This document shows positions 1 through 45,576 of a DNA stretch of 64,000 bases, one piece after another; the first letter of the stretch is position 1, and every line of letters starts with the position of its first letter. Origin of the DNA: Azolla caroliniana. Its lineage: Eukaryota; Plantae; Polypodiophyta. The notes beneath the pieces are model-generated. The model was not told the origin of the DNA, did no database searches, and saw only the letters and a program-made list of their open reading frames with translations. Where the stretch lies: positions 1,922,001-1,986,000 of the forward strand of contig JBHGNT010000010.1 of NCBI GenBank assembly GCA_043228905.1, given 5' to 3'. The translations under genes and the position numbers were made by a program.

Positions 1-180
1 ACGCTTGCATGTCCACGCGTGCTCAACGCACGATGCCAAGCGTATGATCTCGTGTCCATGGCATCTGACCCGACCACGGGACTCAGCCCTTACAAGGAGG
101 ATGGTGTCGTCTACTTCACATTGTCTGCCGAGAACCTTCTTCCCTTCACCCTCATCAACGCGACCAAGACTGCGACCTAA
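1..180 (+). CDS. 3' end of secreted protein subtype A, copy A1 (truncated by window edge)
   Basis: Frame 1 reads TLACPRVLNARCQAYDLVSMASDPTTGLSPYKEDGVVYFTLSAENLLPFTLINATKTAT-TAA(178-180), the same as the C-terminus of 23048-23716. Position 1 corresponds to 23537. Confidence 0.9.
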   Translation, partial: TLACPRVLNARCQAYDLVSMASDPTTGLSPYKEDGVVYFTLSAENLLPFTLINATKTAT

Positions 181-1249
181 AAGCTCGACCTCCCGTCTAT
201 AAAACATGTGATTCAGGCTGTTATTTTGCAATGCAAAATTTGCAGATTGCTAAATAAGTGTATTCAAACTAGTGATTGGAACGAAACTCTGTGAATAAAA
301 TATAACAAGCACTACCTCATGATATATGAGAGCTTTCATGTTTCACCACAACTATGAGTGCTTCTTCTTTCTTATAAAAGTTGGGTATATGTTTGTATGT
401 ACATGTATTTATGCATGTATATCGTATGTATGTAGTACGCTTATATGTATGTAAGTATGTTAATTTGTATGTGTATAAACCACATTTTCCATGAGAGAGA
501 GAGAGAGAGGAGGAGGAGAAGAAGAAAACCTTGGATCAAGAACCTAGGAATTGTGCTTGACCTTTGGTTGTCTACAAGGGAGATGGGGGACTTTGAAGTT
601 TGAATCTCCCTTTTCTTGAAATTTTCTTACAATTATTTTAAAAACCTAACGTTATATGTTGGGTTTTACTTTGTGGCGTTTATTGTCGCGTCGAATCTAA
701 AAAACGATGGTACGAAATTGCATGTAACTTTTAGCGTCACGGTTAACATCATCCATCTAATGTGTCATTTAGTGTCGCTATCATTAGTAAAAATATGTTC
801 GACAGTAATGCCCCCTTATGCTAAAGTGTATATACATATAAAATATACAACACATATGCTCACTCACTTCATTTGCTCACAAATTTACAATACACCTAAT
901 TCACACGCATAAATTTGCAAGCACACAACATGTATAAAACAAGCAATTCAATTGAGAACAACTCAATAAGCATATTCAAACATGCTCATTGCTCACAATA
1001 AAAGCACATCACTAAGTGTTTCCTTGTAACAACAAATGCACACTTACAATCAACCCATACACATACATATACGATATAAATTAATAGACAAACCACCGAC
1101 CTCACATTCAACATACTTGCATTGTTGTACATGCACAAAAATTTGAGCATAAACACTCAAGTTCATACACAATTACAAGAAAAAGGAACATAAATAGATT
1201 GAAGGTTACCCATTTTCCACCGTCAAAACCCACCTTGGATCGTTTGGGT

Positions 1250-1690
1250 TCGAGGGTGTCAAATTCAAACTAGTTTAAAATCGAACTGTTTAAAATTTTG
1301 AAACTTGAACTGAACGGAACCGAACTGCAGAAACCATTAAAAATTGAGGTTTTGTGTTCAGCTTCAGTTTTCAAGTTAGGCCAAATTTCAAAATTTATCA
1401 AATTGTCATTGCGTCAAGTTTTAATAAAATTACAAAATTTTAATGTTTTTCCTTAAAATATGAGAACGAGGCTTAGAAATGAAAAGTTTGTTGATTTAAA
1501 ATATAAAATAAAATGAAGCGGCTACCCTAACCCATGAAACCATTTAAACCGCGGTTTCAAATGATTTAAACCAAAATTTCACCCCAAACCGAAGTGAACT
1601 GAAACCGAACAACTAAAAAAAACATAAACCGGAACCGAACCGAACTGAACCGTTAAGTTGTGGTTTCGCAGTTCGGTTCGATTCATACTG
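1250..1690. mobile_element. Degenerate AT-rich MITE-like element with AACCGAAC motifs
   Basis: Starts near AGGGTGTCAAATTC, has many AACCG/AACTG motifs and GGTTCGGTTCG at the right end. It lies between two ~320-bp direct repeats (~915-1240 and ~1710-2035) and is absent after A3. Confidence 0.45.
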
Positions 1691-3608: not shown

Positions 3609-3801
3609 CCTATAAATAGGCCACAGTATCTCATCTCTCCACATCAACAATACATCACACCACCACAAGCACGAAAGGAAGTAAGGTAAAATTTCAGTAG
3701 TGTCAAACTGTTGGTCTGAATGTGGCTGTGTTAATGCATGTATGTATATATGTTCTCATTAAGAAGGAATGGTGTGTGTTTGCTCCTCATTCATTAGGAA
3801 G
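3609..3801 (+). promoter_or_regulatory. TATA box, 5' UTR and 5'-UTR intron of gene B1
   Basis: CCTATAAATAGG at 3609. The AAG|GTAAAA donor (3686) and TTCATTAG acceptor (3797) lie just before ATG 3802. The same layout precedes B2 and B3. Confidence 0.6.
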
Positions 3802-4467
3802 ATGAGGAGTCTTGTGCTACTTCTGGTTGCCATGGCCATTACCTTGGTTTCTACTAGCGCACTCGGCCAACCCAACGACATTTGCCCCACGGCCGATGAA
3901 GCCGTTTTCCCCCAGTGGTCCGTATGCTCCTCTCCAGCAACCTATAGCTACGCTGGGGGTGTTTACCAGATCCAATCGGTTGGGAGTAGCGCGGGCTATG
4001 GCCAATACCTGGCGCCAGAGTGGGACTCCGAGAATTCGACCTACTATGTCCGCCTGGTCAATGGCGCTTCCTCCGCGGCCAAATACGTGTTCACACACAA
4101 CAGCAGGGAAATCCGATCATATGTTGCAGTGAACGCCAATGACATCATCATCAAGAATGCCGACACCCAGAGATTTCTGGCATGGCGAGACGAGGGCGGG
4201 GAGAAGTTCCTCGTGGAGGCGGACACATCCGACGATGATACAAGCCAAGGATTCTTCAAGTTCACACCTGACTTTGTTCCCTTGCCCTGCCCTTTTATCT
4301 TGCAAGTGCGTTGCCAGGCCTACGACATCGTCTCGGGATCCGACCCCTCATCCGGACTCACCGCGTACAAAGAGGATGGCGCCATCTACTTCAAACTCGC
4401 CGCCAATGATCCTGTCCCCTTTGTCCTTCGTAGAACCCAAACTGAAAGCTTGAAAAGCTTAATGTAA
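3802..4467 (+). CDS. Secreted protein subtype B, copy B1 (221 aa; putative beta-trefoil protease inhibitor-like)
   Basis: GC-rich ORF in AT-rich flanks. Signal peptide MRSLVLLLVAMAITLVSTSALG and 4 conserved Cys. The upstream ATG at 3769 lies in the predicted intron and is followed by an in-frame stop in the B2 copy. Confidence 0.9.
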   Translation: MRSLVLLLVAMAITLVSTSALGQPNDICPTADEAVFPQWSVCSSPATYSYAGGVYQIQSVGSSAGYGQYLAPEWDSENSTYYVRLVNGASSAAKYVFTHNSREIRSYVAVNANDIIIKNADTQRFLAWRDEGGEKFLVEADTSDDDTSQGFFKFTPDFVPLPCPFILQVRCQAYDIVSGSDPSSGLTAYKEDGAIYFKLAANDPVPFVLRRTQTESLKSLM

Positions 4468-4790
4468 CCCGTTTGCTTATGCAATGCAAAATATGTATTG
4501 ATAATAATAAAACATTTCCCTACTTTTGATCGTGTCGAGGTAAAGCCTACATTCACGACAAGTTGTGGACATTGTCACTTCCCATGGTGAGTATTCATGA
4601 AACATACAGAAATTATTAGAAGTCACGATGAAATTTGTAAGAAGACAGACGAAATAATCGATTAGAAATTGGAAATTGTTTTGTCTATTATATGTGCCGT
4701 AGAAAGTTTTTGTGTACATAAATTTTGGTGGTTTGAGTTTTGAATAGTTTGCAGTAGCTAGAATTCGTGGTTGCAATCTTTGGATAAAGG

Positions 4791-6920: not shown

Positions 6921-8436
6921 ATAGGTACTAGAGAGTGTGTATATATATATATATATATGTAAATCAATGGCAAATTGGAAATTGTTTGTTGTCAATAAGT
7001 CCCCAAGATCCCCAACAAAATTGTTTGTTTGTATAAGCACTCATTAGAATTCCGAGTGTGCAAACTTTGGGTGAATGAGAATTTAAAGAGAGATGGGATT
7101 TGAGAGTTTGGGATGTGTGTGTATGTATCATAAACTAGGAAGAGGAAGAGAGGAGGGATACATGTGAATATGAGGTTCAAGTTAGACTCTTAGGTTTGTG
7201 AGGAGTGTTTCTTCATTGGGTCTCGTTTGTGAGGGCTATATTCTATTGCTCCAAAACAAAGCTTCACAAGAAGTTTCTTCCTCATGTAAAGCTTTTTCAC
7301 TTTGATTTAGGTTCTCTTGGACGTGAGCTCGTCACAAGATATTTTTCTAGGATATCTCAACCTTCACATGTAGAACTTGGATTTTGCTTCCACTCTCATG
7401 CCTCGAACATAAGCTTCATTCTTCGACCGCCAAGGTGATTCCAAGGCAATACATCTTTATAATTTATGGTTAATACACAACTAGGTTAGGTCATTTAGGT
7501 AAGCTTGGTCTTGAGTTTGGATTGGAGGCTAAGGACAAACTGCAGGTTACATTTTAACAATTGAATCCTGTTATGTACACATAACATTGGTGAGGGTAAG
7601 TCACCAATACTTACATTAGTGAAGGGTATGTTCACTAATGTTAAAAGGGGGACTAATGATTGGATAGAAGGAATGATAAGTGCATTCACTTTCATGATTT
7701 GGACAACCAATTAATGGAGAGCCTTTTAGAAAGGCACATCTATTCAAGGGGCCTAGGAAAAGGTATAAATATGAGGTTTAGCTACCCTCATAATTGTTGG
7801 GATTACGGTCCCTCCGGATGGGATGGTCGGATGTCCGGGAATCGGGAATGAAGACCCGAATGAGGAGTACCCGGTTACGGAGCCGGATGCTGAAGACCCC
7901 GGTTACGGAGCCGGATGATGAAGACCCCGGTTACGGAGCCGGATGACGAATGTACCCGGAGAGAGATCCGGATGCGGGGACATATTTGTGAATATGTTTG
8001 CCAAGAGCCCTTGAGGCTATATTTGTAAATAACCCAACAGTCATATGTGTATAAATATGACTTAGGGCAAACAGTTTGTTGTTGTTGCTCATTTTATGCG
8101 AAGTGAGAGCAGCCGAGAGAGAGAGAGAGAGAGAGAGACGAAGAGGTCGTTGCCTCTGTGTATTACCGCCGCCTGTGGCGAAGACAGTGAGCTCAAGGTT
8201 GTTGCCTTGTAGCTTCACCAGTGTACATCCCTGTTCATAGTGATAGTTGGAATCTGAGGACTCCCGTGGTTTTTTCCCATTTAGGGTTTTCCACGTAAAA
8301 CATCCAGTGTGCCCTTCTCTCTATTGTTTTTCGTGCATTGTTGTATTTCCCGTTTTCTGTGAATCGATCCTGTTCCTCGGTTGTGGCCGAGCACTGTTTT
8401 TCAACAAGTGGTATCAGAGCGACGGTAACACAGAAA

Positions 8437-11400
8437 ATGGAAGGCGGCGGTAGTGGGCCTCCGGGCATGATGGTGTTGAACTCACAGAACTACGCCGATT
8501 GGAAGATAAAGATGGAAGACCTTCTCATCGTCCGAGACCTGTACGAACCGATCGACAATGCCGAGATACCCAAGGGAGTAATAGAGTCGGAGTGGAAGCT
8601 CCTGAACCGGAAAGCCGTAGCGACGATCCGGCAATATGTCGATGTAAGTGTCCTGCAACATGTGGCGAACGACACGAACGCATATGAGATGTGGAAGAAG
8701 CTGTCGGGCCTCTACGAGAGGAAGAATGCGTTGAACCGGACCTCCCTGATGAGGAAGATAGTGAACCTCAAGTACCGGGACGGGGAGAATATGGTGGAAC
8801 ACGTGAGCACGTTCATGGGATTCGTGAACCAGCTTGCGGCGATCAAGTTCCCGTTGGAGGATGCAATGCAAGCCATCATTCTGATGTGTACATTGCCGGA
8901 AAGCTGGGAGAACTTGGTGGTGACTCTCAGCACCTCCTGCACCGAAGATAACTTGTCTCTACAAACGGTAAAGACAAGCATTTTGAACGAAGAAGCGCGT
9001 CGGAGAGATAAAGAACCGGTTTCTGATCCGAAGATGCTGCTTACCGAATCGGATCGGGGAAGACAATGGAACCGGAGTCCGCAAAGACGGGAGAAGTCGG
9101 GGACCCGGTCGCAGTCTAGAGGAAGGCCCACATGCTTCCACTGTGGGAAGCCGGGGCACTTCCGGAAGAATTGTCGGCATTACCGAAAGGACAACGGAGC
9201 CGACGACACCGATTCGAAGAAGTCACCGGAGAGAAACGGTGCATACCGGGGAGCCACGGACCGGAGAGGTCCGGATCGGCGAGGGCAGGACCGGAAAGGA
9301 ACGACGGCACTCGCGGCAAGTGAAGAAGAAATCATGCTCATTACCGAAGAGAGGGAGCTGAACCTTGCCGGTGTAGAGATGACCTGGGTGGTTGATTCCG
9401 GAGCGTCGTTCCACCTGACCCCGGAGAAGAAATACTTCTCATCCTACACAACCGGTGAGCACGGCTGTGTCCGGATGGGAAATGAAGGCACATGCCGGAT
9501 TGCCGGCATAGGAGACGTGTGGCTGATGACATCAACCGGATGCAAGATGCTGCTGAAGGATGTGCGACACGTTCCGGAGGTCCGATTGAACCTGATCTCG
9601 GCCGGGAGGCTAGATGATGAAGGCTACACGGGTAGCATCCGGAACGGTGTCATGAAGTTCAGCAAGGGGAGCCTGATAGTGGCTCGGGCCCGGAAGGTCA
9701 ACACACTGTACCTGATGAATTCCCGGCTATGTCCGGAGGAGCTGAACGTGGCAGCCGACACTGCCGGTGAGCTGTGGCACAAGAGACTGTGCCACATGAG
9801 TGAGAAGGGAATGAAGAGGCTTGCAGAGGACAGCCTTATTCCAGTGAAGCATGTGCACCTGGAGAAGTGCACCGACTGCCTGGCCGGTAAGCAGAACCGA
9901 ACCTCCTTCCACTCAAGGCCACCGACGAGACGTAGCGCACCATTGGAGTTGGTGCACACGGATGTGTGTCAGGTAGAAACGAAGTCACATGGCGGAGCCC
10001 AGTACTTCGTGACTTTCATTGATGATCACAGCCGGAAGCTGTGGACAGCACCGTTGAAGACAAAGGACCAAGTATTGTCCGTCTTCAAAGAACTCCACGC
10101 GAGAGTGGAAAGGGAATCCGGCAAGAAGCTGAAAGCGATACGAGCAGATAACGGAGGGGAATACCGGGGGCAGTTCCAGGAGTACTGTCGCTCGAAGGGA
10201 ATCCGGCTCGAGTTTACTGTGCCGAAGACGCCGGAACTGAACGGGCTGGCCGAGAGGATGAACCGGACCATAATGGAGAGGGTCCGGAGTATGCTGGCGC
10301 ATGCGAAATTACCCAAGGGGTTTTGGGCTGAGGCAATGTCGACGACGACATACGTGATAAACAGATCACCCTCAGTACCTTTGGACGGAGACACGCCGCA
10401 GAAAGTGTGGACCGGTAGGGAAGTATCCTACCGGCATCTGAAGGTCTTCGGGTGTCTCGCATATGTGCATGTGGCAAAGGACCGGAGAGGAAAGCTAGAT
10501 CCAAAGACCCGGCCATGCATATTCCTCGGTTACGGCGACGACGAGTTCGGCTACCGAGTATGGGACCCGGTCGACAAGAAGATATTCAGGAGTCGAGACA
10601 TCATCTTCATGGAGGACAAGACACTCGCCGACTTGGAGTCGGAGAAGAAGATGAAGAGCTCCAAGTCGACCGGTGAGGATCAACTCTACGAGGAGCAGTC
10701 CCGACCGGCAAGGGACCGGTTAGCACTCGAGGATCCGGCCGAAGACGGTGAAGAAACAGAACCGGCCGAAGAAGATGAAAATGATACCGGGACCGGCCCC
10801 GATCCCGAAATGGATTCGGATGAAGAAGAATCGGAAGAACCGGTTACCGAAGCTCCGGAACGGAGATATCCTCTAAGGGAGAGAAGGGCCCCCCGGAGAT
10901 TTCCGGAACCAGAGCACGTGCTGCTAACCGACGAGGGGGAGCCGGAGAGCTTTGAAGAAGCAAAGCATGACACCCAGAGCCGTAGGTGGTTGAGTGCCAT
11001 GCAGGACGAGATGGATTCCCTGCATGAGAACCACACATATGAACTTGTGGAGCTGCCGAAAGGAAAACGGGCACTCCGTAACAAGTGGGTGTTCAAGCTG
11101 AAACCGGGAGATGCCGGAAACCCCCCGAGATACAAAGCCAGGATCGTGGTGAAGGGGTTTCAGCAGAAGAAGGGCGTCGACTTCGACGAGATATTTGCCC
11201 CGGTAGTGAAGATGACCTCCATCCGGACGGTGCTGAGCATAGCGGCAAGCATGGACCTCGAAGTAGAACAGATGGACGTGAAGACGGCATTCCTTCACGG
11301 TGACCTCGAAGAAGAAATCTACATGCAGCAACCGGAAGGATTCGAGAAGAAAGGGAAGGAGCACCTGGTATGCCGGTTGAAGAAGAGCCTTTACGGACTG

Positions 11401-12510
11401 AAGCAGGCTCCCCGGCAATGGTACCGGAAGTTCGACTCCTTCATGACCGACGAATGGTACCTCAAAACGCAGTCCGACCACTGCGTGTTTGTGAAGAAGT
11501 TCGAAGGAGGAGACTTTCTAATACTCCTCCTGTACGTGGACGACATGTTGATCGTCGGACGGGACCAGGTCAAGATACGGATGCTGAAGAAGGCTCTTCA
11601 CCGAACCTTCTCAATGAAGGACTTGGGTCCGGCGAGGCAAATATTAGGGATGCACATCATCCGGGACTGGAGGAAGAAGCAGTTGTGGCTGTCACAGGAA
11701 AAGTACGTGACAAAGGTGCTTCAACGGTTCAACATGTCGGAAGCAAGACCGGTCGGGTCAACCCTCCCAGCAAACTGCAAGTTGTCCAGCAAGCAAAGTC
11801 CCAAGACAAAGGCTGAGAAGGAGGACATGATGAAAGTGCCATATGCCTCTGCCGTCGGAAGCTTGATGTACGCAATGGTGTGTACAAAACCGGACATAGG
11901 ATATGCAGTCGGAGTGGTGAGCCGGTACATGAGCAATCCCGGCAAAGAGCATTGGAACGCGGCCAAGTGGATACTCCGATACCTGAAGGGCACGGCAAAC
12001 GTGTGCCTCCGATTCGGCTCCGGTAAGCCCGAACTCGACGGCTTTACCGATTCGGATATGTCGGCTGATGCAGATACCAGCCGGTCCACATCAGGGTATG
12101 TGATGACGTACGCAGGGGGAGCTGTTTCATGGCAGTTGAGGCTGCAGAAGACGGTTGCGTTGTCAACCACGGAGGCGGAGTACATGGCGGCTGTTGAAGC
12201 CGGCAAGGAAATAATATGGATGATGGACTTCATTAGAGAGCTCGGTATCCAGCAGGAGGAGTACCGACTCTACTGCGACAGTCAGAGTGCCATCCACCTT
12301 GCGAAGAACGCGGCCTATCACTCCCGGACGAAGCACATCCAGCGAAGATATCACTGGATCCGGGAAAGGATAGAAGACAAGGAGTTCGTGCTGACGAAGG
12401 TCCACACGGACGAGAACGGGTCGGATATGCTGACCAAGGTGCTCACACCCGACAAGCTGGAAGCATGCCAGAAGAGGATCGGATTGGAGAGACATCCCAT
12501 GCCGAAGTGA
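8437..12510 (+). CDS. Copia gag-pol polyprotein, 1357 aa, uninterrupted
   Basis: Zinc knuckle CFHCGKPGHFRKNC, protease WVVDSGAS, integrase HHCC and DDE motifs (HTDVC, DNGGEY, AERMNRT), RT YVDD, RNaseH STTEAEY. First ATG after the PBS is 8437. Confidence 0.96.
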   Translation: MEGGGSGPPGMMVLNSQNYADWKIKMEDLLIVRDLYEPIDNAEIPKGVIESEWKLLNRKAVATIRQYVDVSVLQHVANDTNAYEMWKKLSGLYERKNALNRTSLMRKIVNLKYRDGENMVEHVSTFMGFVNQLAAIKFPLEDAMQAIILMCTLPESWENLVVTLSTSCTEDNLSLQTVKTSILNEEARRRDKEPVSDPKMLLTESDRGRQWNRSPQRREKSGTRSQSRGRPTCFHCGKPGHFRKNCRHYRKDNGADDTDSKKSPERNGAYRGATDRRGPDRRGQDRKGTTALAASEEEIMLITEERELNLAGVEMTWVVDSGASFHLTPEKKYFSSYTTGEHGCVRMGNEGTCRIAGIGDVWLMTSTGCKMLLKDVRHVPEVRLNLISAGRLDDEGYTGSIRNGVMKFSKGSLIVARARKVNTLYLMNSRLCPEELNVAADTAGELWHKRLCHMSEKGMKRLAEDSLIPVKHVHLEKCTDCLAGKQNRTSFHSRPPTRRSAPLELVHTDVCQVETKSHGGAQYFVTFIDDHSRKLWTAPLKTKDQVLSVFKELHARVERESGKKLKAIRADNGGEYRGQFQEYCRSKGIRLEFTVPKTPELNGLAERMNRTIMERVRSMLAHAKLPKGFWAEAMSTTTYVINRSPSVPLDGDTPQKVWTGREVSYRHLKVFGCLAYVHVAKDRRGKLDPKTRPCIFLGYGDDEFGYRVWDPVDKKIFRSRDIIFMEDKTLADLESEKKMKSSKSTGEDQLYEEQSRPARDRLALEDPAEDGEETEPAEEDENDTGTGPDPEMDSDEEESEEPVTEAPERRYPLRERRAPRRFPEPEHVLLTDEGEPESFEEAKHDTQSRRWLSAMQDEMDSLHENHTYELVELPKGKRALRNKWVFKLKPGDAGNPPRYKARIVVKGFQQKKGVDFDEIFAPVVKMTSIRTVLSIAASMDLEVEQMDVKTAFLHGDLEEEIYMQQPEGFEKKGKEHLVCRLKKSLYGLKQAPRQWYRKFDSFMTDEWYLKTQSDHCVFVKKFEGGDFLILLLYVDDMLIVGRDQVKIRMLKKALHRTFSMKDLGPARQILGMHIIRDWRKKQLWLSQEKYVTKVLQRFNMSEARPVGSTLPANCKLSSKQSPKTKAEKEDMMKVPYASAVGSLMYAMVCTKPDIGYAVGVVSRYMSNPGKEHWNAAKWILRYLKGTANVCLRFGSGKPELDGFTDSDMSADADTSRSTSGYVMTYAGGAVSWQLRLQKTVALSTTEAEYMAAVEAGKEIIWMMDFIRELGIQQEEYRLYCDSQSAIHLAKNAAYHSRTKHIQRRYHWIRERIEDKEFVLTKVHTDENGSDMLTKVLTPDKLEACQKRIGLERHPMPK

Positions 12511-12596
12511 AGGGGGAGTTTGTTGGGATTACGGTCCCTCCGGATGGGATGGTCGGATGTCCGGGAATCGGGAATGAAGACCCGAATGAGGAGTAC

Positions 12597-12728
12597 CCGG
12601 TATCGGAGCCGGATGCTGAAGACCCCGGTTACGGAGCCGGATGATGAAGACCCCGGTTACGGAGCCGGATGCTGAAGACCCCGGTTACGGAGCCGGATGA
12701 TGAAGACCCCGGTTACGGAGCCGGATGA
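12597..12728 (+). repeat. 28-bp tandem repeat in the Copia LTR U3 (4+ units in the 3' LTR, 2+ units at 7871-7946 in the 5' LTR)
   Basis: Unit CCGGTTACGGAGCCGGATG(C/A)TGAAGACC. It accounts for the 56-bp LTR length difference (612 vs 668 bp). Confidence 0.9.
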
Positions 12729-13237
12729 CGAATGTACCCGGAGAGAGATCCGGATGCGGGGACATATTTGTGAATATGTTTGCCAAGAGCCCTTGAGGCT
12801 ATATTTGTAAATAACCCAACAGTCATATGTGTATAAATATGACTTAGGGCAAACAGTTTGTTGTTGTTGCTCATTTTATGCGAAGTGAGAGCAGCCGAGA
12901 GAGAGAGAGAGAGAGAGAGACGAAGAGGTCGTTGCCTCTGTGTATTACCGCCGCCTGTGGCGAAGACAGTGAGCTCAAGGTTGTTGCCTTGTAGCTTCAC
13001 CAGTGTACATCCCTGTTCATAGTGATAGTTGGAATCTGAGGACTCCCGTGGTTTTTTCCCATTTAGGGTTTTCCACGTAAAACATCCAGTGTGCCCTTCT
13101 CTCTATTGTTTTTCGTGCATTGTTGTATTTCCCGTTTTCTGTGAATCGATCCTGTTCCTCGGTTGTGGCCGAGCACTGTTTTTCAACAATAATCACATAC
13201 GTCGGAAGGCTACTGTCTTAGACACCGGTGGTGCGGG

Positions 13238-16411: not shown

Positions 16412-19400
16412 TGTCATGAAGACATACATCTTCGTATGGTCGTGGATTATCGAGGCTTGAATAAAGTGACCGTTAGAAACCGATATGCTCTCCCATTGAT
16501 CTCAAGCCTTCTAGAACGCCTCAGTGAAGCAAAGTATTTCACGAAGTTAGATCTTCGAGGTGCCTACAACCTTGTTCGAATTCGTCCTGGGGATGAATGG
16601 AAGACGGCGTTCCGCACTCGCTATGGTCATTTTGAGTACACAGTGATGCCTTTTGGCCTCACGAATGCACCAGCAGTCTTCCAACATATGGCGAATGATA
16701 TTTTTCGAGACTTCCTCGATATCTTCATCATTGTTTACCTGGATGATATCTTGATCTACTCAAAAACTCAAGAAGAACATGATATACATGTTCGCCAAGT
16801 TTTGCAACGACTACGAGAGTATGGTCTATATGCAAAATTGGAGAAGTGTAGTTTCGACCAACGTCAAGTGGAGTTTTTGGGGTACATAGTCTCTTCAAAT
16901 GGCATCTCTATGGATCCATCAAAGGTTCAAACAATTTTGGATTGGCAAACACCACAGTCCGTGCGAGATGTGCAATGTTTTTTGGGGTTCGCAAACTTTT
17001 ATCGCAAGTTCATCAAAGACTATTCAAAAATTGTGTTGCCCCTCACCAGTCTTTAGCCCTTAGCCTACTCCTTGTAATCTTCTTTCTCATAATATAATCG
17101 CATTCCCATTTCTTATCTCTCACTTATACTTTTCTCTCTCTTGCACTCTCTCCCTCTTTCACTCTCTTTCTATCACTATCGCTATCTCTACCGCTCTCGC
17201 CATCTCTATCGTTATCGTTATCTCTATTGCCATCGCTCTCTCTCTCTGCTTCCTACTCAAGAGTCACGACAGTTTGAACCGAATGAGTTGTGATGAGTGT
17301 ATGGACTCTTATTTATAGGCCCTTATGGAGTATTCTAGAATGTTCTAGAATATTTTAGATATTTATGAATAATAATAATAATAAATATAATCATGAAATA
17401 TTCAAGAACATTCTAGAATAATCTAGAATGTTCTAAATATCTCGTAATAACTAAACATATAATTATTATGATTACATCTCACATATGTTATTACAATGGT
17501 TAAAGTACAATATGTAAACCAAGAGGTTATGGGTTCGATTCCTGGTTCGCCAAGATGAATGTCATGATAAGCCAAGATGTATGTCTTCATGACATTATCC
17601 CCCCTTTTCGATGACGAGTTGCACGAGTCGGAAGAAAAGAGTTCAGACTTGGTTTATGAGGATATTGGTTGTGAAATGCAACAACCATGTCGGAGGCATT
17701 GGCAAGATGTTCGGCAGGCTCCCATGTTCGATCATTAGGTGTATAGCCTAACCAATCAACCAAGTAGTATAGTTTGTTGCGAATGATCTTGGAGTCGAGG
17801 ATAGCGGCAACCTCATATTCAGAGCCATTGGAAACGTCAATTGGAGGTGGGGGAGGTGTAACACGACCCGGAATAGAGCTCGTTGTGTAAGGCTCCAAAA
17901 GTGAAACATGGAAGACCGGGTGAAGACGCATATGAGGAGGAAGATCAAGACGAAATGTCACATCATTGATCTTACCACTTATGACATATGGGCCAAAACG
18001 TTGATAATCCAATTTGTAGCAAGGTCGGGTTGTTTTAATGCTACCTTGTAAGAGCCATACACGATCGCCTACTTGAAATGTAGTCGATGAATCACGCCGA
18101 TGACGGTCAGCAATCTTCTTTTGAGTGTTTTGGGCTTCACATAAATGATGCAAAAGCATATCCTGAACTTCTTGGAGTCGAGTGAGCCGATCTTCAGCAG
18201 CTGGGTTTTTTGGGAGTTCAGGATGTTCAAGCATCGTCCAACGAGGATGGTACCCAATGTTTGCAAAAAATGGGGAATATCCAGTAGAAGAATGCTCAGA
18301 GTTGTTATAAGCAAATTCTGCCAAAGGTAGTAAATCCACCCAATCATCTTGTTGATAGTTGACAAAACAACGTAGATATTGCTCGACTGTTTGGTTGGTG
18401 CGCTCACTTTGCCCATTAGTCTCTGGATAGGAGCCATTTGGTTGGACCATCCTAGTTATGTAGAGTCAGTACCTAGTTGTGGTTCCATTGCCGGGAGAGA
18501 GTTTACAAGAAGTATGTAAGAGTCTGAACATGTGCCGCCAAAATTTCGAGATGAATTGGGGACCCCGATCACTGATAATATCATCCGGAAGACCATGATG
18601 GCGAAACACCTCCCACATGAGTAAATCAGCTGTCTCTTGACTAGTAATGGTCTTTGTGCATGGAAGGAAATGTGCCATCTTCGTAAAACGATCGACAACC
18701 GTGAGAATCGAATCAAATCCCTTGGAAGGTGGAAGATCCGTAATAAAGTCCAAGGAAATAGATTTCCATGGGCTCTCCGGAATAGGCATTGGCTGTAATA
18801 AGCCATATGGATGATGTCGAGGCTTTTTTGATCGGCAACATGTATCACAGCTACGAACATAATCCGTAACAAAATGGCGAAGCCGTGGCCACCAATATCG
18901 GCGAGAAATCAACTCAAAAGTCTTGTGGATGCCGAAGTGTCCCGCCATTGGTGTGTCATGACATTGTTGCATGACTTTGAGTCGAGAAGGACCATCAGGC
19001 ACATACAAGAGAGTTTGTCGAAAAAGTAACCCATCATGCCAACTAAACTGGGTGTAGTCTAGACGAGGATTTTGAGTTTGGGAGCTAGATGCACGATTTG
19101 GGATAATATGGCTCAAAACCTCTTCAATAGTTCTTTTTCTCCAATCAATGGTTGGGTTATGTAACTCAAACCAAGGAAGACCAAGAACTAGAGAGTGCTC
19201 CGGACTACTAATGATGTTAAATGAGATGACACTAGCCAAATTACCTAGGACTACACGAATTGGTTCAGACTCTTCGACTATATCTCCTGATGCTATAGGG
19301 CGACCATCGATGACTCCTACAGCTACTGGGTTTGGGAGTTTTTTCGAGACTTCCTCGATATCTTCATCATTGTTTACCTGGATGATATCTTGATCTACTC

Positions 19401-23047: not shown

Positions 23048-23716
23048 ATGAGGAATATGTTGCTCTTCTCTTTTGTTGCCATTTGTTTGGCGTGCAGTCA
23101 TTCCCCCGAATTCGGGCTCGCGGCCGACGAAGACATTTGCCCCACGGCACAAGAAGCCGTGTTCCCGTACTGGTCGTTGTGCTCGGATCCCGCAAAGTAT
23201 AGTTACTCCGGAGGTATTTACAAGCTCCAATCGCAAGGAAGCGGGGATGGCAATGGCTATCTCCTGGCCCCCGAGTGGGATGCCACAGACTCCACCTACT
23301 ATGTCCGCCTCGTGGAGGATTCGGCTGCGGCTGCCAATTACGTGTTCACACACACCACAAGGGAAATCCGTCCATACGTCACGGTGTCCGACACCAACAT
23401 CATCATCGTGAATGCCGACACCCAGCGGTATCTGAAGTGGCGCGACGAAGGCGGGGAACGGTTCTTGGTGGAGGCGGCCATGAATGAGGATTCTACAAGC
23501 CTGGCATTGTTCGAGTTTGCACCCAACAACACGGTCACGCTTGCATGTCCACGCGTGCTCAACGCACGATGCCAAGCGTATGATCTCGTGTCCATGGCAT
23601 CTGACCCGACCACGGGACTCAGCCCTTACAAGGAGGATGGTGTCGTCTACTTCACATTGTCTGCCGAGAACCTTCTTCCCTTCACCCTCATCAACGCGAC
23701 CAAGACTGCGACCTAA
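23048..23716 (+). CDS. Secreted protein subtype A, copy A2 (222 aa)
   Basis: Hydrophobic signal peptide. Colinear with subtype B (DICP.A.EAVFP.WS.C, LAPEWD, STYYVRLV, NADTQR, EGGE.FLVEA, RCQAY, EDG..YF.L). Confidence 0.92.
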   Translation: MRNMLLFSFVAICLACSHSPEFGLAADEDICPTAQEAVFPYWSLCSDPAKYSYSGGIYKLQSQGSGDGNGYLLAPEWDATDSTYYVRLVEDSAAAANYVFTHTTREIRPYVTVSDTNIIIVNADTQRYLKWRDEGGERFLVEAAMNEDSTSLALFEFAPNNTVTLACPRVLNARCQAYDLVSMASDPTTGLSPYKEDGVVYFTLSAENLLPFTLINATKTAT

Positions 23717-24804: not shown

Positions 24805-26850
24805 CAAACTAGTTTAAAATCGAACTGTTTAAAATTTTGAAACTTGAACTGAACGGAACCGAATTGCAAAAACCATTAAAAATTGAGGTTTTGTGTTCAG
24901 CTTCAGTTTTCAAGTTAGGTCAAATTTCAAAATTTATCAAATTTTCATTGCGTCAAGTTTTAATAAAATTACAAAATTTTAACGTTTTTCCTTAAAATGT
25001 GAGAACGAGGCTTAGAAATGAAAAGGTTGTTGACTTAAAAATTAAAATATAAAATAAAATGAAGCAGCTAGCCTAAACCATCAAACCGTTTAAACCAAGG
25101 TTTCAAATGATTTAAACCGAATTGAACTTTTCACCCCAAACCAAACTGAACAATTTAAAAAAACCTAAACCTGAATTAAACCGAACTGAACTCTTAAGTT
25201 GTGGTTTCGCAGTTCAGTTCGATTCATACTAAACTGTTGCTAATTGTTATTTGCAAGCACACATACACGTATAAAACAAGCAACTCAATCCAACACAACT
25301 CTATAAGTATATACAAACATGCTCACAGAAAACCACATAAACATTTCCTTGTAACTACAAATGCACAGCTTACAATCACACCATACACATACATATATAA
25401 TATAAATTTATAGACAAACCACCAACCTCACAATCAACATACATGCACTTTTATACATGCACAAAAATCGAGTTGTTTAAAATTCAAACTAGTGTAAAAT
25501 CGAACTGTTTAAAATTTTGAAACTTTAACTAAACGGAACCAAACTGTAGAAACCATTAAAATTTGAGGTTTTGAGTTTAGCTTTAGTTTTCAAGTTAGGT
25601 CAAATTTCAAAATTTATCAAATTTTCATTGCGTCAAGTTTTAATAAAATTACAAAATTTTAACGTTTTTCCTTAAAATGTGAGAACGAGGCTTAGAAATG
25701 AAAAGGTTGTTGACTTAAAAATTAAAATATAAAATAAAATGAAGCAGCTAGCCTAAACCATCAAACCGTTTAAACCAAGGTTTCAAACTATTTAAACCGA
25801 ATTGAACTTTTCACCCCAAACCAAACTGAACCGAAACTGAACAATTTAAAAAAACCTAAACCTGAATTAAACCGAACCGAACTCTTAAGTTGTGGTTTCG
25901 CGGTTCGGTTCCATTCATACTAAACTGTTGCTAATTGTTATTTGCAAGCACACATACATGTATAAAACAAGCAACTCAATCCAGCACAACTCTATAAGTA
26001 TATACAAACATGCTCACAGAAAACCGCATAAACATTTCCTTGTAACTACAAATGCACAACTTACAATCAAACCATACACATACATATATAATATAAATTT
26101 ATAGACAAACCACCAACCTCACAATCAACATACATGCACTTTGGTACATGCAAAAAAATCGAGTTGTTTAAAATTCAAACTAGTTTAAAATCAAACTGTT
26201 TAAAATTTTGAAACTTGAACTGAACGGAACCGAACTATAGAAACCATTAAAAATTGAGGTTTTGTGTTAAGCTTCAGTTTTCAAGTTAGGTCAAATTTCA
26301 AAATTTATCAAATTTTTATTGCGTCAAGTTTTAATAAAATTACAAAATTTTAATGTTTTTCCTTAAAATGTGAGAACGAGGCTTAGAAATGAAAAGGTTG
26401 TTGACTTAAAAATTAAAATATAAAATAAAATGAAGCAGCTAGCCTAAACCATCAAACCGTTTAAACTAAGGTTTCAAACTATTTAAACCGAATTAAACTT
26501 TTCACCCCAAACCAAACTGAACCGAAACTGAACAATTTAAAAAAACTAAAACCTGAATTAAACCGAACTAAACTCTTAAGTTGTGGTTTCCCGATTCGGT
26601 TCGATTCATACTAAACTGTTGCTAATTGTTATTTGCAAGCACACATACTCGTATAAAACAAGCAACTCAATCCAGCACAACTCTATAAGTATATACAAAC
26701 ATGCTCACAGAAAACCGCATAAACATTTCCTTGTAACTACAAATGCACAACTTACAATCAAACCATACACATACATATATAATATAAATTTATAGACAAA
26801 CCACCAACCTCACATTCAACATACATGCACTTTTGTACATGCACAAAAAT
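24805..26850. repeat. Local ~691-bp tandem triplication of the MITE-containing spacer
   Basis: Copies start at ~24805, 25485 and 26176. The same short ORF recurs at 25201, 25892 and 26583. There is a single copy in the first unit (~1266-1930). Confidence 0.9.
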
Positions 26851-28536
26851 TTGAGCATAAACATTCAAGTTCACAAACAATTACAAGGAAAATGAAAGTA
26901 AATATAGTGAAGGTTACCCATTTTCCACCATCAAAACCCATCTTCCATCGTTCATAGCTCACATTTTTCGTACTCTTCTTGTAGTGTTTGACGAATCAAT
27001 TGGTGAGGGCTGTATATTGCTAGGCGAACAATATGTGAGGGAAGGAGGAATAATTTTCGAGTCAAATGACAGGCAGTATGTTGGAGATTGAAAAATTGTC
27101 ACCTCTTTAAGTGTCACTAAAGCTTCTAGCCTAAGATACATAATGTTTTCAAAAAGGGAGGGGAAAGAACGAACGTGAAGTTGTTACTCCAAAAAAGAAG
27201 TTCACAAGAGGAGTTTAGTCGGGATCATATGGTCAAGACTATAATTGTTCTCACCATGTTTTCTCCCTAAGTTGGCAAAAGATTCAAGGGAAAAGGATTG
27301 AGTGATATCAAACCCCATATGAGACAACAAGGGATGTGGAATGAAGACTAATTGAGAACTTGAACTCACTACTCTTGCTATTTCACCATTCCACAATTTG
27401 ATGAATTATGGTATGTCTCTCCAATTGAATCTCCGAACCTTGTCGATGAACTTTCTCCACCATTACAATTACATATGTGGCCATCTCCCGTGCACCAAGA
27501 GTTTTGTGCCACAACAACAAATGGCACTCGAGCAATCTTCGCTTCTTTTTTATTGTTGTTGTAACCTTTTTTTTCTATCTATCAACATAATGTGCATTAT
27601 GTTTTGATGTTTACATTGAGAGTTGCACAATATATTATTCATCATAGCTTTTTTCATTTGAAATGAACTTAGATTTATGTTAATGTTAATAGCCATGTGT
27701 TTTAAAGGTTAACAGGATGCATTTTCCGAATGTAAGATGTAGTAGACTGATTTCTGAAATATGTCAACATAAGTAATGATTTGCCATTTTGTCTTATGAT
27801 AAACTAGGTTGGCCCCGTCTAGCCCAAAACAAAGACCAGAGAATGATTCTTATGGGGAAGGAATGTCGCAATCAATCTCTTATTCATATTGGTCCCTCTG
27901 CTGCATGAATCTTTTGCCCATGCATTTCTCCGTTTCTCTCTAAATAAAGATTACCTATGGCACTTCTTTGAAGATAATTGCTTTAATTTCAATCCTCAGC
28001 TTGCATGCTTGACATCTACATAGAGTGAGTGGCTTTGGGGATAACCCTCAATGTAATGACCTTCAGAAGCTGGATGTCTTTTTGTTCAATCCTTTCTCTT
28101 TTCTCTACCACAAATTTGTACATTTTATCCATATGTTGGTTAGGCCCATTTTTTAGTCGATAGACATTTGTCATTCTTCATTACTCATATTGGACAATAC
28201 AACAATGTACTGCGCTAGGCATTTGTTTCTCGTGATCCCCAGAAGAGATCATGATATATTGAAACTAAAGATAACTACACTTTATCATTCAGCCTTATCT
28301 CGACTAAAGAAGATCTGTAAAACCTATAAATAGGCCGCTAGAATAGGGCCTCAATTCACAGTATCTCATCTCTCCACATCAACAATACATCACACCACCA
28401 CAAGCAGGAAAGGAAGGAAGGTAAAAATTCAGTAGTGTCAAAGTGTTGTTCTGAATGTGGCTGTGTTAATGCATGTATGTATATATGTTATCATTAAGAA
28501 GGAATGGTGTGTGTTTGCTCCTGATTCATTAGGAAT

Positions 28537-29205
28537 ATGAGGACTCTTGTGCTACTTCTGGTTGCCATGGCCATCTCCTTGGTTTCTACTGGCGCACTCA
28601 GTCAACCCAACGACATTTGCCCCACGGCCGATGAAGCCGTTTTCCCCTACTGGTCCCTATGCTACGATCCAGCAACCTATGACTACTCTGGGGGTGTTTA
28701 CGCCATCGAATCGGCGGGGAGTAGCGGGGGCTCTGGCCAATACCTGGCGCCAGAGTGGGACTCCGAGAATTCCACCTACTATGTCCGCCTGGTCAATGGC
28801 GATTCCTCCGCGGCCAAGTACGTGTTCACACACAACAGCAGGGAAATCCGATCATATGTTGCCGTGAACGCCAATGACATCATCATCAAGAATGCCGACA
28901 CCCAGAGATTTCTGGCATGGCGAGACGAGGGCGGGGAGAAGTTCCTCGTGGAGGCGGACACATCCGATGATGATACAAGCCAAGGATTCTTCAAGTTCAC
29001 ACCCGATCGCTTTGTTCGCGTGCCGTGCCCTGTTATCTTTCAACTGCGTTGCCAGGCCTACAACATCGTCTCGGGATCCGACCCCTCATCCGGACTCACC
29101 GCGTACGAGGAGGATGGCGCCATCTACTTCAAACTCGCCGCCGATGATCTTGTCCCCTTTGTCCTTCGTACAACCCAATCTGAAAGCTTGAAAAGCTTAA
29201 TGTAA
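28537..29205 (+). CDS. Secreted protein subtype B, copy B2 (222 aa)
   Basis: Intact paralogue of B1 with signal peptide, TATA at ~28323 and the same intron signals. Confidence 0.92.
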   Translation: MRTLVLLLVAMAISLVSTGALSQPNDICPTADEAVFPYWSLCYDPATYDYSGGVYAIESAGSSGGSGQYLAPEWDSENSTYYVRLVNGDSSAAKYVFTHNSREIRSYVAVNANDIIIKNADTQRFLAWRDEGGEKFLVEADTSDDDTSQGFFKFTPDRFVRVPCPVIFQLRCQAYNIVSGSDPSSGLTAYEEDGAIYFKLAADDLVPFVLRTTQSESLKSLM

Positions 29206-40078: not shown

Positions 40079-40800
40079 ACGGCTAATCAAGAGATGGTGC
40101 AAGGGCGCATAGTATGTTTTTAGGGTTTACTCAATTGTATACTTATTCTTCACGTAATCGCATGTTCCTTGGTAATTTAAGAAGAATGTGGGCTTTCAAT
40201 TGATAAAGAAGCCCCTCTCATGGTGATATGACAAGACAAGTCCAACACGAAGAATGATAGAAATCGGGTGGGCGGATTCCACAAGGTAATGTATTTACAC
40301 TAAATGATCTACAAGAGAATAAGGGGAATTTGTTGTAGTACAAATGTGTACTTGCCTTTGACTATGTCAGAAGCACGTGGTAATTTTTTCTTGGGGAAGA
40401 TGCGCACGTGCTTATTGTTAATATTCCCATTGTTCACACCAAGATCATGGGCCATGGCCAACGGTGACATGATTTAGGTCTGGCATGGCATGCTTATCTC
40501 CTGCAATGAATGATCTATCACAGCCATAGCTTGTTCCTCACGCCTATAAATACCACACTATCCTCCACTCCATTATTACCAACAAACAATTCCCAATCTT
40601 CCATCTCTACATTTCCACCACTAATTATACATCCATACATTTCCTACCAAGGTATTTCTGAATCATCTATTCTTGTGTTATGCTTCCTCTGATTGCTCTA
40701 TTTAAACACATGTAGCTTTGATTTCATTCCTGTTTGATTAGGTTTTCTCCGCAGTTTCATACAAAAGTTCCAGCGGCAGATCGCATTTCGATTCGGCAGG

Positions 40801-41469
40801 ATGAGGAATATGCTGCTCTTCTCTTTTGTTGCCATTTGTTTGGCGTGCAGTCATTCGCCCGAATTCGGGCTCGCGGCCGACGAAGACATTTGCCCCATGG
40901 CACAAGAAGCCGTGTTCCCGTACTGGTCGTTGTGCTCGGATCCCGCAAAGTATAGTTACTCCGGAGGTATTTACAAGCTCCAATCGCAAGGAAGCGGGGA
41001 TGGCAATGGCTATCTCCTGGCCCCCGAGTGGGATGCCACAGACTCCACCTACTATGTCCGCCTCGTGGAGGATTCAGCCGCGGCAGCCAATTACGTGTTC
41101 ACACACACCACAAGGGAAATCCGTCCATACGTCGCAGTGTCCGACACCAACATCATCATCGTGAATGCCGACACCCAGCGGTATCTGAAGTGGCGCGAGG
41201 AAGGCGGGGAACGGTTCTTGGTGGAGGCGGCCATGAATGAGGATTCTACAAGCCTGGCATTGTTCGAGTTTGTACCCGACAACACGGTCACGCTTGCATG
41301 TCCACGCGTGCTCAACGCACGATGCCAAGCGTATGATCTCGTGTCCATGGCATCGGACCCGACCACGGGACTCAGCCCTTACAAGGAGGATGGTGTCGTC
41401 TACTTCACATTGTCTGCCGAGAACCTTCTTCCCTTCACCCTCATCAACGCGACCAAGACTGCGACCTAA
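40801..41469 (+). CDS. Secreted protein subtype A, copy A3 (222 aa)
   Basis: Intact; 5 amino-acid differences from A2. Confidence 0.92.
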   Translation: MRNMLLFSFVAICLACSHSPEFGLAADEDICPMAQEAVFPYWSLCSDPAKYSYSGGIYKLQSQGSGDGNGYLLAPEWDATDSTYYVRLVEDSAAAANYVFTHTTREIRPYVAVSDTNIIIVNADTQRYLKWREEGGERFLVEAAMNEDSTSLALFEFVPDNTVTLACPRVLNARCQAYDLVSMASDPTTGLSPYKEDGVVYFTLSAENLLPFTLINATKTAT

Positions 41470-43097: not shown

Positions 43098-43257
43098 ATG
43101 AAGAGTCTAGTGCCAGGCCTATGACCTGGTCTCTGGATCCGACCCCTCAATTGGATTCACTACGTATGAAGAGGATGGCGTGATCTACCACAAACTCGCC
43201 GCCGATGATCTTGTCCTCTTCGTTCTTCGCACAATTGAATCAAAACTCTTAATGTAA
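43098..43257 (+). pseudogene. Internally deleted B-like pseudogene
   Basis: ATG AAG AGT CTA GTG is joined out of frame to CQAYDLVSGSDPSIGFTTYEEDGVIYHKLAADDLVLFVLRTIESKLLM-TAA. B-like intron and 3' flank are retained. Confidence 0.85.
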
Positions 43258-44916
43258 CTGGTTTGCCTATGTGATGCAAATGTGCATTGATCATGTATAG
43301 GAAAAGCCTACTTCATGCTACTCCTACAGTGTGGACATTGTCACTTTCGATGGCGAGTATTCATGACATGCAAACATATGGAATGATTATGTATAGATTT
43401 GAAATGAACGCATAGCAATAAACACGTGCAAACCTTCGGGCCTGTGAGATTACAACAACATTGCATCTCGTAAGGGTATGTGGCTTGTCCTTCCAATGTC
43501 ATCACTTATAGAAACAACTATACACGCTCTATATTGGCGTCTAGACTTTGATGAGCCTAATTGGCCCATCATCATCTCCCTAAAGGATTCTCAACTCATG
43601 TTTATCATTCAAATCTACTACCCTCAAGAACAAGAAAACATTCATCCAACTTCTCAAACTTGATCTTCAAAGCTCTCCATCACTACTCCCTTGTGCCTAC
43701 TCATTATTATTGCTATTCCACCATTCCACAATTCAATGTATTTTGATATGTCTCTCCCATTGAATCTCTGAACCTTATCAACCACTTTCTCCACCACTAC
43801 ACTTATGTATGTGGCCTTGTCCTTTGCATAAAGAGTTTTGTTCCACAACAACAAATGACACTGGAGCAATCTTTGCTTCTTTTTATTATTGTTGTAATTT
43901 TTTTTCTCTCTCAACTTTTCTTACTAGCCTTAACATTGTGGTCCGATGTTTACACTCAAAAGTTGGACAATATATTATTCATCATGGTTTTTTTCGTTTG
44001 AAATGTACTTGACTTGTGATAATGTCAATAATACTCATATGTTTTAAAGGTTAATATGATGCATTGTCCAAATATGCTATATCATAATAGTGGACTGATT
44101 TCTCAAATATGTCAACATAAGTAATGATTTGCCATTTCTTCTTATGGTAAAGTAGGTTGGTCGAGGCTAGCCCGAAAACAAGACGACAGAATGATTCTTA
44201 TGGGGAAGTAATGTAGCAATCAATCTTTTATTTATATTGGTGCCTTTCCCACATGAATATTTTGCCCATGCATTTCTCAGCTTCTCTCTAAATAAAGATG
44301 ATCTATGGCAACTTTTTTGAAGATAATTGCTAATTCCAACCCTAGACTTGAATGCTTGACATCCACATAGAGTGAGTGGCTTTTGGGATAACCCTGAATG
44401 TAATAACCTTCAGAATCTGGATGTCTTTTTGTTCAATCCGTTTTCTTTTATCTATCACAAATTTGTATATTTTATCCAGATGTTAGTGAGGCCCATTTTT
44501 TGATCGATAGACATTTGTCTAGTTCATGATCAGTATTCGAGCCGACATACAACAATGTATTTCGCCATGTGTTTCTTGTGATCCCCAGAAAACATTTCAT
44601 CGAACCAAATAAAACAAGACGAACATATATAGGCGGCTACACTTTCTGATTCAACTTTATTCTCGACCAAAGATCTTAAAATGGTGTTTCTTTGACATCT
44701 GTAGAGCCTATAAATAGGCAGCTAGAATAGGGCCTCAATCCACAGTATCTCATCTCTCTACATCAACAATACATCACACCGTCACAAGCACGAAAGGAAG
44801 GAAGGTAAAAATTCAGTAGTGTCAAAGTGTCGGTCTGAATGTGGCTGTGTTAATGCATGTAATTATGTTCTCATTAAGAAGGAATGGTGTGTGTTTGCTC
44901 CTCGTTCATTAGGAAT

Positions 44917-45576
44917 ATGAGGACTCTTGTGCTACTTCTGGTTGCCATGGCCATTACCTTGGTTTCTAATGGCGCACTCAGTCGACCCAACGACATTTGC
45001 CCCACGGCCGATGAAGCCGTTTTCCCCTACTGGTCCCTATGCTCCGATCCAGCAACCTATGAGTACTCTGGGGGTGTTTACCCCATCGAATCGGTGGGGA
45101 GTAGCGCGGGCTATGGCCAATACCTGGCGCCAGAGTGGGACTCCGAGAACTCGACCTACTATGTCCGCCTGGTCGATGCCGATTCCTCCCCGGCCAACTA
45201 CTTGTTCACACACAACAGCAGGGAAATCCGATCATATGTTGCCGTGAACTCCACTGACATCATCATCAAGAATGCCGATACCCAGCGACTTCTGGCATGG
45301 CGAGACGAGGGCGGGGAGAAGTTCCTTGTGGAGGCAGACACATCTGACGACGATACAAGCCAAGGATTCTTCAAGTTCACACCCGATGACTCGGTTTCCC
45401 TGGCGTGCCCTTTTATCTTAGGCGCCCGTTGCCAGGCCTACGACATTGTCTCGGGATCCAACCCCTTATCCGGGCTCACCGCGTACGAGGAGAATGGTGC
45501 CATCTACTTCAAACTCGCGGCCGATAATGTTGTCCCCTTTGTCCTTCGCACAAGCGTATCCAAAAGCCTAATGTAA
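44917..45576 (+). CDS. Secreted protein subtype B, copy B3 (219 aa; older paralogue)
   Basis: Intact ORF with signal peptide; TATA at ~44707. Flanks are homologous to, but more diverged than, those of B1 and B2. Confidence 0.92.
   Translation: MRTLVLLLVAMAITLVSNGALSRPNDICPTADEAVFPYWSLCSDPATYEYSGGVYPIESVGSSAGYGQYLAPEWDSENSTYYVRLVDADSSPANYLFTHNSREIRSYVAVNSTDIIIKNADTQRLLAWRDEGGEKFLVEADTSDDDTSQGFFKFTPDDSVSLACPFILGARCQAYDIVSGSNPLSGLTAYEENGAIYFKLAADNVVPFVLRTSVSKSLM

Follow-up and report, generated by a model that had tools for sequence, protein, structure and literature searches.

What are the proteins encoded by an alternating array of small genes in the fern Azolla caroliniana, and what might they do? 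The array lies in a stretch of 64,000 nucleotides (assembly GCA_043228905.1, contig JBHGNT010000010.1, positions 1,922,001 to 1,986,000), referred to here as the window, in which two related types of gene, A and B, follow one another. The original prediction, made from the letters alone, had described them as a family of secreted proteins and as candidate beta-trefoil protease inhibitors or defence proteins. We propose that they are canonical serine-protease inhibitors acting in defence, with the reactive site in a cysteine-flanked loop between strands beta8 and beta9 and not in the beta4-beta5 loop usual for Kunitz inhibitors. We hold this proposal to be an even bet; its defence part is suggested by the tandem expansion together with the variability of the loop.

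The window contains five complete single-exon open reading frames of 219-222 amino acids (aa), all on the plus strand, three of type A and two of type B, accompanied by one clipped gene and one pseudogene:

1..180, plus strand: B1, the 3' tail of a B-type gene (59 codons and the stop), clipped at the window edge; 100% identical to B2 residues 164-222
3802..4467, plus strand: A1 coding sequence, 221 aa; loop CPFILQVRC at 4288-4314, putative P1 Phe
23048..23716, plus strand: B2 coding sequence, 222 aa; loop CPRVLNARC at 23546-23572, putative P1 Arg; modelled, pLDDT 93.4
28537..29205, plus strand: A2 coding sequence, 222 aa; modelled, pLDDT 87.5
40801..41469, plus strand: B3 coding sequence, 222 aa; loop CPRVLNARC at 41299-41325
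43098..43257, plus strand: A-type pseudogene (psiA), the ATG and four codons fused out of frame to the final ~48 codons; the upstream exon of the untranslated region (UTR) and the intron are kept
44917..45576, plus strand: A3 coding sequence, 219 aa; loop CPFILGARC at 45406-45432, putative P1 Phe

The order is therefore B-A-B-A-B-psiA-A, with the pseudogene between B3 and A3. Of the six copies counted originally, five are complete and the sixth is only the B tail at the edge, while the A pseudogene, a seventh copy, had been overlooked. The size of about 220 aa and the description as signal-peptide proteins both stand, as every complete copy carries a single N-terminal hydrophobic stretch (11-residue Kyte-Doolittle value 2.8-3.0 versus at most 2.04 elsewhere), which we judge signal-peptide-like by hydropathy. 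The mature proteins are single domains of 21.5-22.0 kDa. A and B are about 55% identical, the A paralogues share 84-88%, and B2 and B3 share 98%. The B proteins end in ATKTAT, and the A types in a hydrophobic tail such as KSLM, likewise found in many relatives. The word "secreted" is sound for entry into the secretory pathway but not for the final site, since the A tails may direct those proteins to the vacuole.

Both types are transcribed. Contigs of public runs, labelled X1, X3 and X6, cross spliced joints in the 5' UTR of both types, and it is from these joints that transcription is read, the RNA nature of the runs being only a guess. The introns are as follows:

3686..3797, plus strand: A1 5' UTR intron, GT..AG, inferred by homology to the spliced introns of A2 and A3; contains the false ATG 3769
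28421..28532, plus strand: A2 5' UTR intron, GT..AG, joint 28418>28531, contigs of X1 and X6
40652..40741, plus strand: B3 5' UTR intron, GT..AG, joint 40649>40740, B-type contig of X1
44805..44912, plus strand: A3 5' UTR intron, GT..AG, joint 44802>44911, contigs of X1, X3 and X6

Contig cover is limited to exons. Six of the eight X1 pieces listed for A2 show no difference from it, and an X3 contig has 4 differences from A3 over 368 nucleotides. Since 15 differences separate the B-type X1 contig from B3, it is assigned to the B type and not to an exact copy; the splicing evidence covers A2, A3 and one B type. Because the in-frame ATGs found upstream, at 3769 and 44884, sit within the 5' UTR intron (seen directly for A3 and by homology for A1), the true starts are 3802 and 44917.

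A beta-trefoil had been suggested as the fold, and the models agree. AlphaFold2 models of mature A2 (15 sequences, pLDDT 87.5, pTM 0.85) and mature B2 (37 sequences, pLDDT 93.4, pTM 0.90) each have 12 strands, three kinds of fold search point to the same class, and no non-trefoil prediction appeared. Foldseek places Kunitz-STI inhibitors in all of rows 1-12 for A2. When A2 was compared with 48,161 chains (VIA), ranks 1-13 went to the Kunitz-STI family (Z 16.2-18.1, root-mean-square deviation 2.4-3.1, 151-163 residues aligned), followed by a neurotoxin binding domain (Z 16.1), MIR (14.2) and R-type lectins (about 12.7). All 50 rows listed for B2, rescored from Foldseek's top 1000, belong to the Kunitz-STI family (Z 16.9-19.3). 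Identity to the matched Kunitz proteins is 9-19%, and the structural match extends over the N-terminal segment ahead of strand 1. These results support a predicted beta-trefoil fold whose nearest solved structures are the plant Kunitz-STI proteins. The three internal repeats that had been read from the letters are clear in the models and weak in sequence: pairwise hhalign probabilities are 6.8, 6.1 and 0.2%; of the cross-unit scores, 8-46% lie beyond the 95th percentile of shuffles, and two of the three pairs lie above shuffles.

Among the folds considered originally, Kunitz-STI is thus the closest, whereas ricin-B lectin motifs are absent. This bears on the possibility that the proteins are beta-trefoil lectins binding fungal, nematode or insect-gut glycans, which we regard as very unlikely. 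Ricin-B-like clusters do occur among the Atlas feature matches (0.85-0.91), the repeats of actinohivin are faintly but not significantly similar (E 0.15-0.45), and the conserved hairpin residues W51, D52, W105, E108, Y167 and E169 could form a sugar site. However, Q-x-W is lacking in all five window proteins, and R-type lectins score about 5 Z units under the Kunitz proteins. R-type sugar sites carry Asp after the strand-2 Leu; in the fern proteins this residue is Ala, Ala/Gly or Thr/Ser.

The family proved difficult to place by sequence, as had been anticipated. No significant Pfam match was found, and none of the five window proteins, 37 aligned members or five further members matches PF00197 (Kunitz_legume) at E<=10. 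Searches of the PDB by sequence or by family profile gave no significant match and no Kunitz chain, and a strong full-length match to a characterised family was likewise absent. The weak, non-significant profile rows were Fascin (1 of 37 members, E 0.049), a beta-trefoil ulvan-lyase domain (E 0.14) and actinohivin (E 0.15). Word-index searches, a profile search of 1.84 billion representatives and cluster look-ups together yielded 66 homologues. The profile search contributed 28 matches, 2 of which were discarded as chance; the long repetitive proteins P0062 and P0063 (E 1e-5 to 6e-5) were rejected on this ground. Organism names are attached to 23 of the 66, every one of them a fern: Adiantum capillus-veneris, A. 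nelumboides, Ceratopteris richardii and Pteridium aquilinum, with every entry annotated as hypothetical or unnamed. The final homologue search, with 7,998 candidates scored, returned no non-fern name. As far as names reach, the family is therefore lineage-specific, as claimed, and it is multi-copy in Adiantum and Ceratopteris too. Nothing on the family was found among the titles and beginnings of abstracts listed; patents, subscription journals and supplements lay outside that search, so the family may already have been described as a patented fern insecticidal protein. Four Adiantum homologues (P0061, P0065, P0066 and P0068) form a divergent subfamily with 20-23% identity, a longer propeptide and Glu or Asp at position 3 of the cysteine-flanked loop; they may have another target or none. 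P0054 looks like a fusion with a retroelement that arose in gene calling.

The mature proteins have four cysteines: 5 and 19 precede strand 1, and 141 and 149 belong to the long beta8-beta9 loop. The C-x13-C and C-x7-C spacings noted earlier are true of the window copies, but the former varies across the family (13-18 residues, inclusive). The C-x7-C loop is far steadier, with nine residues in 32 of the 35 rows that have it (two truncated rows of 37 were left out). Cys5, Cys141 and Cys149 are invariant in 26 diverse rows, and Cys19 is lost in two. One homologue, P0019 of A. capillus-veneris, has lost Cys19 and gained a cysteine at 148 (loop position 8), a possibly compensatory swap that would bring the two cysteine-bearing segments together. 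In the model, residues 17-18 and 147-148 form short strands, a hint that the N-terminal cysteine segment packs beside the cysteine-flanked loop. In EcTI and most Kunitz inhibitors, the disulfides link beta2-3 to beta5-6 and enclose beta9-10, and the single reactive site lies in beta4-5; the EcTI pairs are Cys40-86 and Cys133-142 (PMC3633903). Some Kunitz members are described as lacking one pair (PMC6048452). Cysteines 5, 19, 141 and 149 do not fall at these positions, and we therefore call the family Kunitz-like and not a typical Kunitz member. A C-terminal likeness to Kunitz-STI had also been perceived; it extends to the strands but not to C-x7-C, which is not the Kunitz second disulfide, as that sits one loop later.

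According to PMC9062101, the beta4-beta5 and beta8-beta9 turns of this scaffold are related by symmetry, the termini being the third member. The C-x7-C segment is predicted to lie in the beta8-beta9 loop (16-18 residues in the models) and so to be the symmetry counterpart of the loop that is reactive in Kunitz inhibitors, an assignment new here. The two loops of A2 are:

28834..28878, plus strand: A2 beta4-beta5 loop, mature residues 77-91, from the model strand map and conservation; the Kunitz reactive-loop position and a rival reactive site with conserved Arg82
29026..29052, plus strand: A2 nine-residue cysteine-flanked loop CPVIFQLRC in beta8-beta9; putative reactive site, P1 Val

The cysteine-flanked loop follows the consensus C-P-[R/L/F/A/V]-[I/V/L/M], with Pro at position 2 in 34 of 42 rows and I, V, L or M at position 4 in 34 of 42; CPRI is the commonest start (9/42). 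Among 29 representatives at 70% identity, position 3 is R in 10, L in 9, F, A and D in 2 each, and another residue in 4. Within the window it is Arg in B, Phe in A1 and A3, and Val in A2. Residues 133-147 are the most variable 15-residue stretch of the protein (score 26, permutation p=0.0014, versus 13 for the beta4-beta5 loop; 17 close A-type rows, with P0007 left out for its frameshifted start). On family trees of 42 rows, position 143, the third of the loop, shows the most switches between R/K and L/F/Y/M/W of 185 columns: 10 versus 6 for the next column with the loop masked, 9 versus 6 unmasked, and 7 versus 6 on 29 rows, after 13 close paralogues had been dropped. In swapping basic and hydrophobic residues, this position resembles a protease P1 residue. 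The sequence pattern and variability of the loop are those to be expected of a canonical inhibitory loop, one that would be exposed and pinned by disulfides, with a P1 that varies between specificity classes. An excess of replacements between A2 and A3 at residues 134-150 (proportion of replacement changes, pN, 0.364 versus 0.056, Fisher p 1e-7) was noticed after the fact and could stem from a single imported tract, and for these reasons we do not count it as proof that selection acted.

Comparable loops are known from other inhibitors. The Bowman-Birk loop also has nine residues, CTP1SXPPXC, with K or R at P1 for trypsin and F, Y, L or W for chymotrypsin (PMC7760496), and the squash inhibitor EETI-II begins GCPRILMRC (PMC10977697). 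The Bowman-Birk family (I12) and the fern proteins thus share a nine-residue inter-cysteine loop with a variable third residue drawn from R/K and L/F, a likeness that would be convergent; the Bowman-Birk fold is a different one. In the squash inhibitors (I7; EETI-II, MCoTI-II), the C-P-R-I start recurs, as in EETI-II, whose Arg is P1. Those inhibitors are cystine knots of about 30 residues, whereas the fern motif is inserted into a trefoil of 200 residues, with the following cysteine one residue further on.

Several points weigh against placing an inhibitory site here. The fern loop has neither Thr at P2, Ser at P1' nor Pro-Pro, unlike that of the Bowman-Birk family. On the thinned set, the lead of position 143 over column 188 is a single step, and in four columns switches between other classes of residue are more frequent. 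The permutation test ignores the tendency of loops to vary more than strands, and both the loop and the residue classes were picked after inspection. Synonymous change in the loop is also high for A1-A3 (proportion of synonymous changes, pS, 0.41 versus pN 0.18), so that tract exchange could explain the variability, and some homologue contigs may be mosaics made in assembly. Identity to Kunitz proteins is low, 0 of 37 members match PF00197, and clostridial neurotoxin binding domains reach a Z of 16.1. For the Ceratopteris homologue P0047 (own model, pLDDT 0.64), Atlas listed MIR and ricin-type rows, with no Kunitz among the 10.

The Kunitz fold is moreover shared by non-inhibitors: winged bean albumin ranks first and second in the fold searches, and the chlorophyll-binding WSCP falls within the top tie. 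The fern proteins might accordingly be akin to winged bean albumin, the sporamin-type reserves or WSCP and serve in storage, in the binding of ligands or as receptor-binding defence proteins, and hydrophobic C-terminal tails would fit vacuolar storage. The top structural row in Atlas for P0014 is a sporamin B-like (Kunitz) cluster, with a TM score of 0.60 that is below the naming bar. This explanation is quite unlikely in our judgement, as it leaves unexplained a cysteine-flanked loop that keeps its length while its third residue alternates between Arg and Leu or Phe.

A hydrolase inhibitor could also act through the beta4-beta5 loop or others, as in API-A, clitocypin and BASI, with the cysteine-flanked loop serving as a structural element or a second head. 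The beta4-beta5 loop is the one used by most Kunitz inhibitors (PMC3633903; PMC9062101), several loops serve Kunitz proteins (PMC6048452, PMC7863939), and cysteine proteases too are blocked, via other loops (PMC6048452). In the fern family, the long beta4-beta5 loop, of about 15 residues, carries Arg82 in 32 of 42 rows, often preceded by I, L, Y or F; the top Atlas feature match of P0047 is clitocypin-like I48 (0.92). Pro follows Arg82 in 13 of 42 rows, however, and the loop is nearly constant among A paralogues (pN 0-0.058). A Pro following Arg disfavours a canonical trypsin site. The loop is also unrecognisable in divergent members that retain the C-x7-C loop. We regard an inhibitor working through these loops as unlikely.

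If the proposed beta8-beta9 site is right, the mechanism might run as follows. The proteins would enter the endoplasmic reticulum through the signal-peptide-like N-terminus, and two disulfides would form and pin the loop, the N-terminal cysteine segment probably lying beside it. The A type would then travel to the vacuole, its hydrophobic tail resembling what we take to be vacuolar sorting signals, and the B type to the apoplast. The beta8-beta9 loop would be offered to the active site of a serine protease as a slowly cleaved substrate, with loop position 3 entering the S1 pocket and setting the target class: trypsin-like for the Arg of B, chymotrypsin-like for the Phe of A1 and A3, and elastase-like for the Val of A2. 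Duplication combined with loop change could in this manner equip the fern with a set of inhibitors for the proteases of insect guts or microbes. There is precedent for the use of other loops by Kunitz-fold inhibitors, as API-A uses L6 and L10 (PMC3633903).

How the family relates to known inhibitors can be judged from what is shared. The Kunitz-STI proteins (MEROPS I3, PF00197; soybean STI, winged bean WCI, durian DzTI, API-A) are the best structural match, with a predicted 12-strand trefoil of about 22 kDa, a signal peptide, a pre-strand-1 segment, a long beta4-beta5 loop, four cysteines and tandem multigene clusters in common. In Kunitz-STI inhibitors, an Asn13-type residue supports the P1 of the beta4-beta5 loop. 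In EcTI, the cysteines sit in beta2-beta3/beta5-beta6 and beta9-beta10, whereas the fern cysteines lie ahead of strand 1 and in beta8-beta9, where the 16-18 residue loop bears the P1-like residue. As it has neither a match to the Kunitz profile nor the Kunitz disulfides, the fern family is not filed under I3. In a survey of plant inhibitors, I3 is given only for angiosperms among the genomes searched, with no fern sampled and a wider range in its Table 1 (PMC4189545). The fungal inhibitors clitocypin (I48), macrocypin and the I66 mycospins belong to the same fold class, with Atlas feature matches of 0.84-0.92 and 68-121 shared features. None of them stands in the 50 rows that the wide fold search listed, they give no Pfam match, and they are smaller; fungal beta-trefoil inhibitors are also not known to have signal peptides or disulfides. 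Fern insecticidal proteins (Tma12, IPD083, IPD113 and aerolysin-like proteins) are encoded by fern defence genes, some in tandem arrays (PMC9477723, PMC10622923). Tma12 is an AA10 monooxygenase and IPD113 is Bt-toxin-like, and no such Pfam domain occurs in the window proteins. The words "trefoil" and "Kunitz" are absent from the main text of the Ceratopteris genome and IPD113 papers (PMC9477723, PMC10622923).

The alternation of A and B is the outcome of tandem duplication of a B+A block, later broken by transposons. Self-BLAST shows a duplicated block of 18-24 kb, flanks included; the first two units, and the B copies, are 95-98% identical, and the A3 flank about 82%. The fixed A-B order described originally is real as an alternation, but it is a by-product of this duplication and psiA interrupts it. 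It consequently gives no evidence of functional pairing, and an obligate A-B pair was set aside. A1 and A2 have diverged almost neutrally (pN 0.060, pS 0.070), and B is under purifying selection (pN 0.011, pS 0.036). A runs test gave no significant sign of gene conversion among A1, A2 and A3 (45 runs against a shuffle mean of 50.2, p=0.12). The array lies amid Copia, Gypsy and long interspersed nuclear element (LINE)-type pieces and includes a pseudogene. Together with the near-neutral A1/A2 divergence and the constraint on B, this setting would suit proteins that act on endogenous proteases or in development or stress, their expansion reflecting drift in a transposon-rich region. We consider that highly improbable, because change is concentrated in one loop and the family is multi-copy in Adiantum and Ceratopteris as well.

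The surrounding elements are of several kinds. An intact Ty1/Copia element at 7795-13188 (plus strand) has a 1357-aa open reading frame at 8437-12510, TG..CA ends and a 5-bp target duplication, ATAAT; its long terminal repeats differ at only 4 aligned bases, besides a 28-bp repeat array. It inserted after the block duplication, since the second unit is without it. An older, broken relative from the same Copia family lies at 50600-55000 (plus strand; 81% identity over 3.5 kb). Chromodomain-bearing Gypsy pieces in both orientations occupy 16412-20233, where an 894-bp direct duplication (16701-17594 and 19340-20233, 99.8%) flanks an inverted integrase-chromodomain part of Gypsy. Between B and A, an AT-rich tandem unit of about 690 bp (24800-26950; 900-2050) differs in copy number across the three blocks. 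Further downstream are degenerate LINE-like pieces on the minus strand (47200-50000 and 55800-57400), with a zf-RVT match under the cut-off and endonuclease-like and ORF1-like fragments recognised by eye. A 48-bp tandem array at 60280-61347 (22 copies, 80% matches, open in several frames) has a 530-bp direct repeat on both sides (59694-60222 and 61889-62408). Broken open reading frames with DUF7869 (E 2e-38) at 62485-63822 (plus strand) are probably a transposase-like relic.

Kunitz-type inhibitors are among the main protein defences of flowering plants. A fern family on the same predicted scaffold, invisible to Pfam, would either push the origin of that scaffold back or show close convergence, and if beta8-beta9 is the reactive site, a canonical inhibitory loop would have been re-invented at a symmetry-related position of one scaffold. 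The window provides a ready-made test panel, as its paralogues carry Arg, Phe or Val at the putative P1; ferns have already been mined for insecticidal proteins, and this family would be cheap to express and assay. Our fuller proposal, a tentative one that we hold with less than even confidence, is an undescribed fern sister family of Kunitz-STI whose reactive site has shifted to beta8-beta9, where a nine-residue loop like those of Bowman-Birk and squash inhibitors evolved independently and its P1 switches repeatedly between trypsin, chymotrypsin and elastase types. If true, such a sister family would date the Kunitz scaffold to before the split between ferns and seed plants, and would amount to a new family of inhibitors and to a so far unused supply of proteins for insect resistance.

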